Shown: positions 33,001-39,000 of the stretch, in pieces
Numbering within the stretch: the first letter of the stretch is position 1
How the letters are laid out: each line of letters begins with the position of its first letter
NCBI GenBank assembly: GCA_963699155.1
Contig: OY969414.1
Coordinates: forward strand, 491,757 to 555,756
Origin: an uncultured Chlamydiales bacterium
GTDB lineage: Bacteria > Chlamydiota > Chlamydiia > Chlamydiales > JAAKFR01
Length of the DNA stretch: 64,000 nt
Direction of reading: 5' to 3'
Made by a program: the position numbers

Positions 33001-36000
33001 GCCCTCAGGCAACACCACGACCGACTGCCCCAGCCTAAATTCACCACTGACGATCCTCCCCGAATAGCCTCTATAATCGTGCCAACCTTCTTTTTGTGGG
33101 CGAATCACATATTGTACGGAGAAACGGGTATGGGTCAGGTTGAGATCTTGGGTCGCCTGAACATTTTCTAAATGGTGTAGAAGAGTCGGTCCGTGATACC
33201 AAGGCATCTGCTGCGAGCTGAAAACAACATTCTCCCCTTTCAGAGCACTCACAGGAATAAAGGTTACCTCTTTGAGATGTAAGTCTTTGGCAATGGCCTT
33301 GTAATCATTTACAATCTTGTCAAAGAGCTCCTGTGAATAACCAATCATATCCATTTTATTGATCGCGACGGTGATATGGGGGATTTTGAGTATCGAGGCA
33401 ATGATGCTATGTCGACGTGTCTGCTCCAACACACCGAGGCGCGCATCGATGAGAATGATGATCAAATGGCAATTGCTGGCTCCCGTCACCATGTTGCGTG
33501 TGTACTGAATATGGCCAGGCGCATCAGCGATGATAAATTTCTTTTTTTTCGTCTGGAAATATTTGTAGGCGACATCGATCGTGATGCCTTGCTCCCGCTC
33601 TGCGCGAAGACCATCGACAAATAGGGCCAGGTCCACCTCGCCCTCCTCTACATTTTTGCTCTGCCTTCGAACCGTTTCCAACTGATCCATCTTGATAGAA
33701 TTGGTATCGTACAGAAGTCGTCCAATCAAAGTACTTTTGCCATCGTCGACACTTCCTGCAGTGATAAATCGAAGAAGTCCCATAGCTAAAAATACCCATT
33801 CTTCTTTCTGTCTTCCATGCCCGCCTCACTGATCAAATCGTCGATGCGGGTCTCACCTCGCTCGCTGATTTTCGTATTCAAAATTTCCTGCTCGACTTGA
33901 TCTACCGTATAGGCACTACTTTCTATGGCTGCCGTACAGGTCATATCACCGACAGTGCGATAGCGGACAAAGCGCTTTTCTACACGATCATCCCGATCGA
34001 TCTGCACAAAAGGACTCATGGCCAGGAGATGTTTGCCAACGAGAAGAACCTCTCTTTCATGCGAGAAGTAGATCGAAGGCAGTTCAATTTCTTCTCTCTT
34101 GATATAAGCCCAGACATCCAGCTCGGTCCAGTTGCTGATGGGAAAAACGCGGACGTTTTCGCCTTTATTGATTTTTCCATTATACAAATTCCACATCTCG
34201 GGACGCTGCTTCTTCGGATCCCATTGGCCAAACTCATTGCGGACCGAAAAAATTCTCTCCTTCGCCCGCGCCTTTTCTTCGTCGCGACGCGCCCCTCCGA
34301 TGCAGGCATCAAACTCATACTTTTCGATCGTATCCAACAAGGTGAACGATTGCAGGGCATTGCGCGAAGGAAATTTTCCACCAGGCTCTTTCAAGTTTTT
34401 CGCTTTGATCGTTTCGCTCACAAGGCCAACAACCATTTTAGCTTTAAGCCGTGCGACCATCGCATCTCGATAATCGAGCACCTCGGGAAAATTATGGCCC
34501 GTATCGATATGGACCAGAGTAAAGGGAATTTCGGCAGGCGCAAATGCCTTTTGAGCCAGATGAACCAGAGTGATGGAATCTTTTCCTCCCGAGAAAAGTA
34601 GGGCGGGACGCTCAAACTGTCCTGCCACTTCACGCATAATGTGGACAGACTCTGACTCTAAATCTTCTAAATAATCCATAAAAACCTGCCCATGCTAATC
34701 ATGACAAATCAAATCTTTCAACAGATTTCCATAAATGGCGGCGCGTGTGGGCCAGGAGAAGCGGCCTTGTTTGGTGTGAATCTCTTTTTGGAGCTTCTCT
34801 CGAAGGGTTTTGTCTTGGAGTTGCTGGATGGCTTGAGCGAGTGAGCTCTGGTCTCCAGGTGCAAAGTAGAGGAGGCCGCTGTCTGCAGAGAAATCGGCGT
34901 GGACGACGGGAAGGTCGGGGGCGATGATCGGGCGTCCCCACTCGGCATATTCGGCGAGCTTCGTGTGTGCTACATAGGGCATGCGGCCTGTTTGGCCAAA
35001 GGGAGCGACAAAGGCATCGACATCTTGAAGGTGTTCAGGAATATCTGAGGGAGGTAAAAAGCCAAGAAAGGTGACGGCTTTTTGAATACCGAGTTCAACT
35101 GCTAATTGGTTCAGGCGGCTGACATCGCGATGATTACCGCCAATCACCTTTAATCGGACATTTTTGACTTGCGCAAGCGCCAACAAAAGAGCGGTGAGTC
35201 CTTGTCCCTCGTAAAGCTGTCCTACGTAGGCTATGGTCAATTCTGGATGTGTCTGTGGAGGTGGCAATGGGAGCGTCTGGACCGCTAAGGGGACCTCTTC
35301 GATGCGATTTTGAAGAGAATAAGGAGGCTGCAGCAGAATCTCTTTTAAAGCCGAGGTGGTGACAGTGATGAGATCGGCATGAGCGAGCATCTCGCGCTCC
35401 TTACTGAGAGCTTTCTTGTTAACGGTTGTTTGATTGGGGTAATAGCACAACTCATGTACTTCATAGAGATAGCGCACCCCGGCCACTTTGTGTTGAAGAT
35501 GGTAGGCTCCCTGTTTGCGCACACTGAGAATGACCAGATCTGGGCGGCTCTCCCGGATCTCCTGTTGACAGTGATGGAAGAAGGGCCAATTCCAGCTGAT
35601 CCCTAGGATATTATTTTTGCGGATGATCCGAAGAGGCTTGATATGCAATCTCGGGCAAGGGGCAATCTTGTAATGCATGTAAAAATTTTCTAAGTCACTG
35701 CCTTTGCCTATTAATAGAGTGAGATCAGATCCACTCTCTGCGAGGGCCGCACACTCTTGCACGATGAAGAGATCGTGGGCCTTTCTCTTCGGAAGTATCT
35801 CGTTATAAGGATAAATAATACGCATTTGTCAAAATTGATACTATCTGATACAGACATAGTAAATTAGTTAAAAAGACAATGAAAGAAGTTTTCAAGCAGC
35901 TTACAAGTATTTGGCATGAGTTGAAAGGGCTACAAAAAACAGCTTTCCTGGCCGTTTTAGCAGCGACGATCATAGCCTTAAGCTTTGTTTTTTTGAAAAC

Positions 36001-39000
36001 TTCTTCGCCCCGATATCTGCCCCTTTTTCCCAATAAATCGATCTCCATCTCTGAAATGGAGACGGTGGAGAGTCTGCTTCTCGAGTGTGATCTGCAGTAT
36101 AAAGTCGATGCAGAGAAGGGATTTTTGGTAGCCGCAAAAGATTTTGACCGCGCGATGAGTGGTTTAGGGGAGTTGCATAAGCCAAAGGGAGCAAAGGGGT
36201 TTGAACTTTTTGATACCAACACCTGGATTAAGGGCGAAAAGGAGCTTCAAGTCCTCGAAATGCGGGCTCTGAAAGGTCAGTTAGAAAAGGATCTCGCAGG
36301 TTTTGAGAACATCAAAAGTGCCAGTGTGATTCTCGACATTCCTCCCCAGAGAACTTTCAATGGATCGAAGTTTCAGACAAAAGCTTCTGTCATTCTCACT
36401 TTGATGCCCAAGGCCCATCTCTCGGCCTCACAGCTCAGAGCGGTCACCAACCATTTGGCAGGCGCTGTCCGTGGGCTGGAGCCAGAGATGATTGCCATCT
36501 CAGACTCCACAGGGAAGCTCTATAAGGCGATCGACCCGGAACATAAGGAGAGCTTCCAGCAAGAGAGTGCGATGCTCTTGGAAGAACGGGCCACGGAGAA
36601 AGCGGTCTCTCTGCTCGAACGTTTTGTGGGCGAAGGTCACTATCACCTCACAGTTCAGGCGCTTCTCAAGCCGCAAACTAAGGATATAGAGGCTTTGCAG
36701 ATCGCCGCTTTGATCGATGAAGAGAAGATTCCGCCGGAGAAGCTCTCCTTACGCAAAGAGATTGAGAGACAGCTCCGCTCCATCGTGAAGGGTTATGGGG
36801 TTGAGGGAGAGGCGATCGTCGATTTTCTACTCTTCGATCAGAAAAGCGAGCTTGGAGTAGCCAGGGAAACAGGGAAGGGCTTTTTAGGGATTGCGGTGAC
36901 CACTCTCTTTGTGGCTCTTGCTCTCGCTGCTTTGATCCCCTTCTTGCGCAAAGGGAGAAAAAAGAAGAGTGATGAGGAAGCGCTCTTCAAAGTGATGACG
37001 AAAATCGATCTCAAACAGCTCGTAGGTTCGATGGAGAGGGAGGATCCGCAAACGATCGCTCTTATGGTCTCTTATCTGGAACCTGCGAAGGCAGAACAGA
37101 TGATTGCCTCTTTAAAGCCAGAGCTTCAGGAAGAGGTGCTTTTTTATCTTGCTGAACTCGAAAGAGGGAGCACCACATGATCATCCGTGGAGAAAAGGTG
37201 TCTGAGCAGGCCACATTGACTCCAGGACGCCTTTTGGAGTGGGAATCTGCCACTATCAGCTCCCCATCTTGGTTTGAGGAAGAGCGCCTCCAGGCTTTCG
37301 AGAAAGGGAAAAGGCTGGGAGAAGAGAAGGGATATGCCCAAGCTGTCCAAGAGATGCACTCTTCGATGCGGCTGTTGCAAACGTTGGCGAATAAGCTTCT
37401 AGACCATAAAGAGAAGCTTCTCGATCAGCTAAAACCCGAAGTGATCCAATTTAGCCTAGCGGTGTGTGAAAGGGCTATCCGTAAAGAGCTGAGCCAGCCT
37501 GAAGTTTTTGTGAAATGGCTCAATACGCTTCTTTCTTATGTGATCAATCGTGGAGATGAAGAGAAGATCTCTCTTTTTTTGGCCCCGGGTGACCTCCGCT
37601 TAGTTGAAAAATTTATGGAGAGTAAAAGCTACCTCTCTTTGCGGGAAGATCCCTTGATGCGTCACGGTGATTGCCGGATCGAAACGCCGACAAAAATGGT
37701 CCGTTGGTCCATTGAGCGAGAGCTTGAGGATCTTGAATCCAAAGTTTTATGCTTATGAAACTTTTAGAGAAAGAGATGCGGCAGATCCCAAAGTGGCAGA
37801 CGCCTCGATTGAGCGGCAGGGTCACCCATGTGATCGGTCTCTTGATTGAATCGACAGGTCCTGAGATATCTGTGGGGGAGATCTGTTTCGTTTATGACAA
37901 ACAGGGAGAGCCTATTCCTTGCCAAGTTGTCGGCTTTAAAGACAAAAAGGTGCTCTTGATGTGCCTCGGAGAGATAGAGCGCATCACTCTTGGCTCTGAG
38001 GTGCGTCCTACGGGAGATCTGCACCGTGTAGGTGTCGGTGAAGAGCTCTGTGGAAGGGTCCTCGATGGCTTAGGAAGGCCGATCGATAATAAAGGAGAGA
38101 TCCGCGCAAGAAAATTTTATCCCTTGGTGGCAGCGCCACCGCCCCCTTTATCGCGTCGTCCTATTCAGGAGCAGCTAGAAACAAAGGTCAAAGCGATCGA
38201 TGCGCTCTGCACACTCGGGAAAGGTCAGCGCATCGGCATCTTTTCCAGCGCGGGTGTCGGCAAGTCAACCTTAATGGGAATGATCGCAAGATCGGCTCAG
38301 GCCGATATCAATGTGATCGCCTTGATAGGCGAGCGTGGACGTGAAGTCCGAGAATTTATTGAAAGGGAATTGGGTCCAGAGGGCCTTGCCCGTTCGATCG
38401 TTGTCGTTGCCACCTCCGATCAGGCAGCTCTTTTACGAGCCAAAGGAGCTCAAGTGGCCATGGCGATTGCCGAGTTTTTCCGTGATGAGGGCAAAAGTGT
38501 CATTTTCATGATGGATTCAGTGACCCGTTATGCGATGGCTCTCAGAGAGATTGGTTTGGCTATCGGTGAGCCCCCAACAACGCGGGGGTATACGCCCTCA
38601 GTCTTTGCACAGCTGCCAAAACTATTAGAGCGGGCTGGAAATAATGAAACAGGCTCGATCACAGGAATCTATACGATCCTTTGTGAAGAGGATGAGGTGC
38701 ATGATCCCATACCCGATCAGATGCGCTCACTCCTGGATGGCCACATCCATCTCTCCCGCTCTCTCGCTGCTGCAGGCCATTTTCCTCCGATCGATGTGTT
38801 GAAGAGCTTATCGCGCGTGATGCCACAGATCACAGCCAAAAAGCAGCAAACTCTTGCTGCAAAAATACGCGCACTCCTGCATGAATACCATCAAGCTGAG
38901 GAGTTGATTCAGCTCGGTGCTTATGTGGCTGGATCGACACCGGCGATCGATGAAGCGGTGAAAAAGATCGGTCAGGTGAGAGAATTTTTAAAACAAGAAG

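Follow-up and report, generated by a model that had tools for sequence, protein, structure and literature searches.

A fusion of FliF to part of FliG has already been published for the Chlamydiaceae (Bergeron 2016, PMC4768692). That protein (CT719/Cpn0860; NF004606) is about 330-345 aa long, lacks RBM1, and passes from a collar-less RBM3 and a second transmembrane helix (TM2) into the FliG middle domain (FliG-M) only, ending after the ARM helices. Nearly the same join exists in a Salmonella laboratory mutant without FliF's final 56 residues and the first 94 of FliG (PMC6445934); FliF-C and FliG-N are removed, and FliG is entered at the start of its middle domain. Flagellum-derived secretion is also known from non-motile bacteria, in the Buchnera basal body and the early NF-T3SS of Myxococcales (PMC3459982), where the export apparatus has outlived filament and motor. 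The injectisome offers a further parallel, since its SctJ ring and SctK form a plain inner-membrane RBM ring with one ARM-type adaptor to the SPOA platform. SctK resembles FliG, a likeness that finds weak profile support.

How does the present locus compare? The window (the whole stretch of DNA analysed, 64,000 nucleotides from an uncultured Chlamydiales bacterium) contains a single ORF at 35879-37180 on the forward strand, which runs from an ATG to a TGA overlapping the start of fliH and encodes 433 aa. Pfam detects YscJ_FliF at residues 42-215 (E 4e-31) and FliG_M at 379-429 (E 2e-11). There is no Pfam match to FliG_N, FliG_C or YscJ_FliF_C (PF08345), the last of which is found in intact chlamydial FliF relatives. 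PDB sequence matches place FliF at 27-265 (6scn) and FliG at 359-429 (3hjl) and 378-431 (4qrm), so the one-ORF structure and the ranges reported in a first-pass annotation (27-265 and 359-431) were both recovered. The protein has the locus and architecture of the Chlamydiaceae fusion but is longer, has RBM1 and is far less diverged. It scores 92.4 bits on NF004606 against a curated cut-off of 297, with three Chlamydia controls at 440-612 and three other genera of the Chlamydia family at 102-162. It also falls below the canonical FliF model (TIGR00206, 95 against a cut-off of 130) and far below the SctJ model (TIGR02544, 18 against 162 bits). Whereas the injectisome has a lipoprotein SctJ with two RBMs plus SctD, the fusion is one polypeptide of flagellar descent with an N-terminal transmembrane helix and three RBMs.

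The order along the protein is TM1, RBM1, RBM2, a collar-less RBM3, TM2 and then, in frame, FliG-M; the AlphaFold model has a mean pLDDT of 79. TM1 (residues 17-41; 35927-36001) is a hydrophobic helix in the model and aligns with the FliF N-terminal helix. RBM1 (46-100; 36014-36178) matches PrgK RBM1 (4w4m; Z 7.6, rmsd 1.9, 55 residues), and RBM2 (119-216; 36233-36526) matches 6sd2 with a Foldseek TMt of 0.94 and an rmsd of 1.2. RBM2, which in flagella rings the export gate, is the most conserved part, with 65-78% identity to intact chlamydial FliF. The model and BLAST alignment place RBM3, the S-ring domain, at residues 225-317 (36551-36829): model residues 223-320 align to the Vibrio S-ring at 258-452 (Z 11.9, rmsd 2.9, 95 residues), and residues 270-321 match 365-431 of intact FliF. 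Within it, alignment, model and BLAST locate a deletion scar at 36668-36685, where a turn of ~6 residues stands in place of about 94 (~271-364 in the FliF of G031) that form the beta-collar. Alignment and model put TM2 at residues ~335-355 (36881-36943). A basic stop-transfer stretch at the junction (36944-36964) then leads into FliG at ~107; the FliG-binding tail of FliF and FliG-N are gone, and inspection of the junction DNA in this genome established no clear micro-homology. The FliG middle (ARM) domain (FliG ~107-175; 36965-37168) is identified by Pfam, BLAST and a structural match to 1lkv 115-170 (Z 10.2, rmsd 2.1, 56 residues). It carries the motif EDPQ, where most intact chlamydial FliG have EQPQ, and helix MC is absent, as is the torque domain. 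The first-pass annotation was thus right about the loss of beta-collar and torque domain, but it omitted the RBM3 that is retained without its collar. Both an RBM3 with collar and a FliG-binding C-terminal tail, features of canonical FliF, are lacking.

The fusion gene is followed on the same strand by a shortened fliH (37177-37758; Pfam FliH, 193 aa versus 244-268 in intact genomes), by fliI (37749-39059; Pfam), and by fliJ (39056-39496; profile match and locus comparison). A motif check of FliI found intact what we read as the P-loop, catalytic Glu, Walker B and Arg-finger. Intact loci have a gene of ~210-260 aa after fliJ, without a Pfam match and presumably ylxF-like, that is missing here. 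Next come a uridylyltransferase (Pfam UDPGP) and a second gene identified by synteny (39429-41739, forward strand), which we take to be glmU-like and gpsA-like; this pair is a syntenic anchor common to the loci of the family under study (f1), of intact genomes, of the family that includes Chlamydia (f15) and of a second fusion family (f17). The upstream anchor is a divergent glycosyltransferase on the reverse strand (34695-35825; Pfam and locus comparison), present at all 26 f1 loci except one, where a contig end cuts it, and in one intact genome (G024). A consensus promoter scan of the operon gave nothing above chance.

The fusion is matched in 22/22 other f1 genomes in the phylum sample and in 17 of 18 nearest relatives, the single miss being a genome that is 71% complete. 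At each of the 26 f1 loci examined there is one open ORF of 342-459 aa with fliH directly after it (the FliG part was shown by profile for two of them), which extends the earlier count of 345-458 aa in six of six family genomes and leads us to reject an assembly artefact, considered because of apparent frameshifts in rpoB and lepA in the genome under study. Left out of the survey were G425 of f17 (a divergent FliF/FliG pair of 25% identity that looks foreign, in a bin 6% contaminated), G142 (an MgtE match) and the weak matches G205, G242, G331 and G052; G034 was left out of fusion scoring. RBM1, correctly described as kept in the present copy, is no family trait: at least nine of the 26 f1 genomes have it shortened or have lost it, and Chlamydiaceae have lost it. 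Nine genomes of other families have separate open frames for fliF (539-583 aa) and fliG (347-394 aa), close to the lengths first annotated, and fused and intact genomes share the downstream neighbours fliH-fliI-fliJ-glmU-gpsA. The identity of 54-63% previously given for these pairs did not hold up: BLAST gives 41-49% over FliF 1-265 and, for the eight of nine FliG that aligned, 33-51% over the FliG part. FliI is 59-64% identical to its intact chlamydial counterparts.

Is the fusion ancestral or derived? Fused and intact genes occupy one and the same locus, the scars map cleanly, and intact genomes sit on several branches around the fused clade. These observations support a derived deletion of an intact fliF-fliG pair, as first proposed. 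In the trees, f1 and Chlamydiaceae group together with support 100 and G015 falls outside the two, and f1 plus f15 form one side of a branch with support 100 in species and locus trees; G027 and G381, which have no usable rpoB, are absent from the species tree. Chlamydiaceae branches are long in the trees. Four genomes listed as Ca. Sororchlamydiaceae (L050, L053, L055 and L063; PMC9666466 Data S9A) carry the fusion and the same gene order, and f1 probably corresponds to that family.

The first-pass annotation had noted that the fusion reaches beyond Chlamydiaceae, as it does (f1 and f17), and had left open whether it arose once or twice. The Chlamydiaceae fusion is the orthologue of that in f1, at the same locus in the same clade, and parsimony favours one origin for the two. 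Because f17 repeats these deletions by convergence, deletions in common are not by themselves proof that the fusion arose once. The small-genome family said to have the same FliG-M tail was seen as well; it is f15, which includes Chlamydia itself, and its code in the annotation (f35) could not be matched. In f17, a fusion evolved independently of f1, adding at least one further fusion in the phylum. A single origin of the f1 and f17 fusions was rejected in an AU test run without Chlamydiaceae and four f1 rows (p=4e-43). A test on FliF alone did not reject that all collar-less FliF go back to one origin (p=0.108); for independent collar loss the case is built on the species tree and family assignments. 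This independent fusion and the rest of the miniaturised apparatus in f1 go beyond the first-pass annotation.

The fused gene and fliHIJ are under purifying selection, with dN/dS of 0.02-0.09 in f1. Over the whole fusion, dS was saturated in three of seven pairs, and the members of one pair did not differ; the only f1 pair whose dS was unsaturated along the entire gene gave dN/dS of 0.024 (fusion) and 0.013 (tail). The genome also encodes the full type III export set (FliP/Q/R, FlhA, FlhB and FliH/I/J), although its FlhB has no cytoplasmic domain and its FlhA no D2. It keeps fliO-fliP-fliQ-fliR (FliO, FliP and FliQ over NCBIfam cut-offs), a 198-aa FlhB, a 621-aa FlhA, a 260-aa FlhF, FliA, a 78-aa FliM C-terminus and FliN, and it encodes a complete injectisome as well. 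FliOPQR, the FlhB transmembrane part, FlhF and FliM-C/FliN set it apart from Chlamydiaceae, in which FliPQR were found in 0/8. Across f1 the apparatus is whole but miniaturised, made up of FliOPQR, an FlhB that has lost its switch domain, an FlhA that has lost D2, FliHIJ, a SPOA-only FliM, and FliN. Flagellar-type FliP occurs in 19 of 21 genomes (none was seen in G015 or G008), and in 17 of 20 loci FlhB, at 189-241 aa, stops short of the cleavage motif. FlhA has an internal deletion in 20/20 f1 loci, and a gap covers the same region in 8/8 f15 loci. A short SPOA-only ORF is present in 21/21 genomes. In 17 of 18 f1 copies the MMM gasket of FliP is altered, and the protein's N-terminal segment is gone, so the gate could be non-standard.

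A motile flagellum has a FliG torque domain, MotA/B, rod, hook and flagellin; its motor and axial parts were not found in the genomes searched. Rod/hook, flagellin and MotB were detected in 0/21 f1 genomes, the single-contig genome under study included, and in 8/8 motile-type genomes by the same search. The FliG torque domain, FliE and the FliM middle domain were each found in 0/3 f1 genomes tested. The FliM middle domain is the usual partner of FliG-M, so any partner of the tail is a putative one. The exaptation logic is that of Buchnera and the Myxococcales, although Buchnera is described with a basal body, whereas f1 yielded no rod, FliE or L/P rings, and each f1 protein is trimmed to its core with no linked needle subunit or secretin.

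We consider it probable that the fusion is the static ring housing of a miniaturised, motorless, flagellum-derived type III exporter, which arose once and in place by deletions. Three deletions (the beta-collar; FliF-C with FliG-N; everything after the FliG ARM-M domain) would have happened a single time, in the common ancestor of f1 and Chlamydiaceae, while rod, hook, filament and stator were being lost from the flagellum. A gate of FliP/Q/R, FlhB(TM) and FlhA would sit inside rings of RBM2 and the collar-less RBM3, and FliG-M, covalently joined to the ring protein, would tether the FlhA-C ring in the cytoplasm and/or a platform of SPOA-only FliM/FliN, FliH, FliI and FliJ. Such an exporter, having no rod, substrate switch or chaperone dock, would move its substrates in no set order and across no membrane but the inner one, into the periplasm. 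Chlamydiaceae would afterwards have lost the gate, FlhB and mostly FliM/N. In C. pneumoniae, the C-terminal 70 aa of FliF are required for FlhA-C pull-down and FliI hydrolyses ATP (PMC2830194); tail-FlhA binding has been published solely for Cpn0860. A complex prediction for the FliG-M tail with FlhA-C scored 0.00 against a mark of 0.32, which speaks neither for nor against the pairing.

In a hybrid reading, the fused ring would combine with FlhA/FliH/FliI and Sct parts into an alternative basal body of the injectisome, with FliG-M binding SctQ as Bergeron proposed. We hold this to be rather unlikely. C. pneumoniae FliI and FlhA do bind CdsL, CopN and CdsU; fliF, fliI and flhA drop together with T3SS genes on sigma54/sigma28 knock-down; the Chlamydiaceae have no flagellar gate and the present genome has a complete injectisome. 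Yet f1 retains its own gate, FlhB-TM, FliM-C/FliN and FliO, all needless for a hybrid. The hybrid reading suits Chlamydiaceae better than it does f1. In another chlamydia, what is probably a native SctK-like gene precedes sctL, so the injectisome may not need the FliG-M tail. On the other hand, Chlamydiaceae hold the fusion without FliPQR, and thus the ring can be selected without a gate of its own. That the apparatus regulates or scaffolds instead of exporting in bulk, for instance by exporting an anti-sigma28 factor alone to time development (anti-sigma export is speculated on in PMC10597470) or by marking a cell pole with FlhF, seems improbable. It would suit the retention of fliA downstream of flhA in f1 and f15, of a GTPase-only FlhF in 19 of 20 f1 loci, and of CsrA and FliW in a genome without flagellin. 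However, no FlgM-like protein was identified, a 105-aa ORF of G031 guessed to be FlgM has no match here, and FlgM is a late substrate needing the FlhB-C switch (PMC7911332), which is deleted.

The remaining readings fare worse. Bergeron's closing suggestion of an ancestral proto-flagellar state and the alternative of a decaying pseudo-operon are both very improbable; for f1, synteny, the trees and dN/dS refute them. Intact pairs occupy the same locus on several branches around the fused clade, and a published reconstruction (PMC9816063) makes the last chlamydial ancestor a flagellated one. Decay would fit f17, where a graded trimming series ends at a lone 151-aa FliG-M ORF, and it is possible for the f17/f38 remnants, but f1 has open ORFs in 26/26 loci and dN/dS near 0.02. 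Motility of f1, with the fusion in a working motor, has been suggested in print for CC-IV/Sororchlamydiaceae (10.1101/577767; PMC9666466), and Salmonella FliF-FliG deletion fusions still rotate. The Salmonella mutant, though, retains the collar and the stator-binding FliG-C, and the natural fusion lacks both domains and a stator. With torque domain, MotB, flagellin, rod/hook and FliE undetected, motility is contradicted for the genomes searched, and we give it almost no credence.

What do these results imply for the family? The polarity of the published fusion is settled as derived, and the absence data argue against the printed suggestion of motility. Where the orphan flagellar genes of Chlamydia (fliF, fliH, fliI, flhA, fliA) come from and what they do is an old open question; f1 displays the step that immediately precedes them, still with an export gate and with a defined set of parts. 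The graded, convergent deletions indicate domains that a type III exporter can do without. Tentatively, the Sororchlamydiaceae may run a complete second type III exporter, a minimum-trimmed flagellum and the living missing link between motile chlamydiae and those orphan genes, with the trimming repeated independently in a second clade and FliG-M the last rotor piece kept. If this is true, conversion of a flagellum to secretion would be a repeatable route.

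A single ORF at 35879-37180 (+) encodes a 433-aa protein in which FliF is joined in frame to the middle domain of FliG (FliG-M). On the same strand follow fliH (start 37177), fliI (37749) and fliJ (39056), then a uridylyltransferase gene and what we take to be a gpsA-like gene. Pfam places YscJ_FliF at residues 42-215 and FliG_M at 379-429, with no match to the collar, FliG_N or FliG_C domains in the 433 residues, and PDB sequence matches reproduce the ranges given by a first-pass annotation. In an AlphaFold model (26-row alignment, mean pLDDT 79, pTM 0.42), TM1 spans 17-41, ring-building domains RBM1 and RBM2 occupy 46-100 and 119-216, and residues 225-317 form another domain of alpha-beta-beta-alpha-beta topology; TM2 begins at 335, and the four ARM helices lie at 378-430. 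This third domain can be superposed on RBM3 of the Vibrio S-ring (258-452; Z 11.9, rmsd 2.9, 95 residues), and RBM3 is therefore retained without its beta-collar; the tail superposes on FliG 115-170 (Z 10.2, rmsd 2.1, 56 residues). The first-pass annotation had the FliF and FliG parts right and left the collar-less RBM3 unmentioned. Residues 1-263 align with 7-270 of FliF from G031, a chlamydial reference genome with intact fliF and fliG, and 270-321 with 365-431, so about 94 collar residues have been swapped for a short turn. Past TM2 and a basic stretch, the protein enters FliG directly at about residue 107; the FliF C-terminal tail and FliG-N are therefore missing. The chain stops near FliG residue 175; helix MC and the torque domain are absent. 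Judged by sequence, the fusion is the result of three deletions relative to intact chlamydial FliF and FliG. The join is similar to that of a Salmonella deletion fusion, in which FliF's final 56 residues and the first 94 of FliG are removed and which, unlike this protein, retains the stator-binding domain (PMC6445934, in part). RBM1 is present here, but at least 9 of 26 genomes of the same family (f1), one of them of the same genus, have a shortened RBM1 or none. Identity to the intact proteins, put at 54-63% by the first-pass annotation, is 41-49% over FliF 1-265, 65-78% over RBM2 and 33-51% over the FliG part.

The fusion extends beyond Chlamydiaceae, as had been claimed. Across 400 sampled genomes of the phylum, it matches all 22 other f1 genomes, 28 of 29 from f15 (the Chlamydiaceae) and 13 from other families; a FliG-M profile search gives identical f1 and f15 counts. 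One fused ORF is present in all 26 f1 loci (342-459 aa) and 13 f15 loci (332-402 aa) examined; in nine genomes fliF (528-550 aa) and fliG (336-378 aa) are separate genes. Downstream, most f1, f15 and intact loci keep the order fliH-fliI-fliJ-(ylxF-like)-glmU-gpsA where the DNA reaches. Three f15 proteins score above the Chlamydia threshold of NF004606; another three, from other f15 genera, fall short of it. Four named fusion-bearing records (L050, L053, L055, L063) stand under Ca. Sororchlamydiaceae in Data S9A of PMC9666466 (in part), from which we infer that f1 is that family.

Two unrooted trees bear on the origin of the fusion. In the species tree (RpoB, RpoC, five ribosomal/Nus proteins and EF-Tu; 41 genomes, 3880 columns, FastTree, with a 21-genome IQ-TREE subset), f1 and f15 group at full support and intact genomes occupy several other branches; in the flagellar-locus tree, a branch with support 100 sets f1 and f15 together apart from the rest, and the f15 branches are long. 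A single origin for f1 and Chlamydiaceae is most parsimonious. One f1 genome, G015 (L086, L140), falls outside the group formed by Chlamydiaceae and the remaining f1 genomes; it yielded no flagellar FliP, FlhB or FlhF, possibly a parallel loss of the gate (FliP/Q/R). The fusion is derived, because several families could not have regained the lost domains in place and because a flagellated chlamydial ancestor has already been inferred (PMC5604735, PMC9816063, both in part), an inference questioned in PMC5826181 (in part). The first-pass annotation thus had the polarity right: intact genomes on several branches carry the pair at the same locus.

Queries taken from the full flagellar gene complement of G031 located other flagellar genes of G000, the genome holding the window, on its contig: fliO-fliP-fliQ-fliR-csrA (1476953-1479472), flhB (198 aa)-flhA (621)-flhF (260)-fliA (1542791-1546804) and a FliM C-terminus (78 aa) with FliN (1340640-1341264). 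Both csrA (1476953-1477189, adjoining fliR) and fliW (322244-322660, near gsp genes), outside the window, are kept though flagellin was not found in G000; in G031, gsp genes adjoin the flg cluster. Several f1 proteins are trimmed. The N-terminal segment of FliP is missing, and 17 of 18 copies have an altered MMM gasket. In 17 of 20 f1 loci FlhB measures 189-241 aa and terminates ahead of the cleavage motif (residue 277 in G031). FlhA is without G031 residues ~428-481 in 20 of 20 f1 loci, with a gap over the same region in 8 of 8 f15 loci and none in families f17 and f33. The f1 gap equals ~431-480 of a solved 692-aa FlhA, the D2 domain. FlhB-C acts as the substrate switch, and chaperone-substrate complexes dock at the FlhA dimple between D1 and D2 (PMC7911332, in part). 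A SPOA-only ORF (73-144 aa) occurs in 21 of 21 f1 genomes and one f15 genome, and the FliM middle domain was not found in the three f1 genomes tested. The catalytic motifs of FliI are intact. In G171 (f15; L325 region, C1:146283-146859) a short FliM-C/FliN pair remains; searches of the seven further f15 genomes found none.

What might this apparatus do? All parts for rotation, axial assembly and substrate ordering have been cut, and the pore, housing, FlhA and ATPase complex retained; we infer that the retained parts probably function as a static inner-membrane exporter. The last 70 residues of C. pneumoniae FliF, required to bind FlhA-C (PMC2830194, in part), are this same FliG-M remnant, and by analogy the tail may bind FlhA-C or, alternatively, the SPOA platform. 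That the fused ring instead forms a hybrid with the injectisome is unlikely overall, and likelier for Chlamydiaceae: flagellar-type FliP is present in 0 of 8 f15 genomes and 19 of 21 from f1. A regulatory or scaffold role (PMC10597470, in part) is more doubtful still.

An ancestral state or decay is very improbable. The derived polarity runs contrary to Bergeron's closing suggestion (PMC4768692, in part). In the only f1 pair whose dS is unsaturated along the entire gene, the fusion has a dN/dS of 0.024, its tail one of 0.013 and fliHIJ values of 0.03-0.09; one f15 pair gives 0.13 and 0.07. Motility, the possible role given to the published CC-IV/Sororchlamydiaceae flagellar genes (10.1101/577767; PMC9666466; both in part), is the least credible reading. 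G031 queries found no match in G000 for flagellins, rod, hook, L/P rings, FliE, FliK, FliL or MotA/B. A survey of 41 selected genomes recovered the rod/hook, flagellin and MotB families in 0/21 f1, 0/8 f15, 0/2 f17, 0/1 f33 and 0/1 f38 genomes, and in 8/8 other intact genomes.

A second series of fusions, independent of those in f1, is found in f17, where 8 of 73 genomes matched and the FliG-M profile added one. These lie at the same locus, most directly upstream of glmU, and differ from the f1 fusions. G408 (754 aa, L281; contig ends before glmU) retains the collar with most of FliG attached. G229 and G381 (657-659 aa; L036, L042) retain the collar and FliG ~110-237, with ~30 extra junction residues; FliM and FlhA are full in G229. 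G418 (502 aa, L282) is without RBM1 and collar, and fliHIJ is missing from the locus; G430 (360 aa, L284) apparently has one ring domain, a TM and FliG-M; G247 (L321) has a lone 151-aa FliG-M ORF. The f17 loci are a graded series of independent fusions and remnants, with FliG-M the last remaining piece. G354 (f33; L046, L138, L159, L187) has degenerate but separate fliF and fliG and a full export apparatus; rod, flagellin and MotB were not found in its 500-contig bin, and it is possibly the earliest reduction stage. In G287 (f38; L047:2-1198) the collar-less FliF retains its native tail and is followed by an 80-aa FliG-N, encoded separately and immediately ahead of glmU; a different contig (L048) carries a further fliF fragment that is not identical to the first.

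In the locus tree, G229 and G381 group with G354 at a support of 100, and constraining f1 and f17 to group is rejected (AU p=4e-43). Unlike in the species tree, every reduced system there lies to one side of a weakly supported branch (89). The FliF-only tree pairs G354 with G408 (95/95), which suggests more than one fusion inside the f17/f33 clade. On FliF alone, the test does not reject a single origin for every collar-less FliF (p=0.108). The full fliF-fliG pair of G425 (L283:7030-9666) is divergent and does not resemble those of chlamydiae; its bin is 6% contaminated, and this is contamination or transfer.

Other observations concern neighboring or similar sequences. The FliG-M profile weakly matches (E ~1e-5) proteins of 288-294 aa (L324:2813-3697, L323:3725-4591), one directly before sctL; these are probably chlamydial SctK. 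A 50-bp tandem repeat at window 28529-29042 (10.3 copies, 98% matches), between what we take to be tig-like and clpP-like genes, explains repetitive spurious ORFs there; a related 61-bp repeat has two copies at 43230-43346. Outside the window, rpoB (~1238000) and lepA (~897170) of the contig are apparently frameshifted, which suggests indel errors in the assembly.

The FliF-FliG fusion is already in print for Chlamydiaceae. For Sororchlamydiaceae, Data S8A of PMC9666466 (in part) gives fliF, fliQ, fliR, two fliP and two fliI, with no fliG, fliM or motA/B; its mot rows are zero in all genomes, so it is insensitive to mot genes. Exaptation of flagellar exporters is known in Buchnera (PMC3459982, PMC13468123), orphan CORE genes are mentioned in PMC6456723, and wider flagellar gene sets are reported in PMC8242063 (all in part). 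No literature description was found of the fusion outside Chlamydiaceae, the trimmed FlhB, FlhA and FliM, or the f17 series; supplements of 10.1101/577767, PMC5604735 and PMC8242063 may bear on this. The fusion is real, correctly polarised and a variant of the known Chlamydiaceae fusion. Its significance is that it marks a complete, miniaturised, motorless apparatus, probably for export, and repeated convergent trimming.
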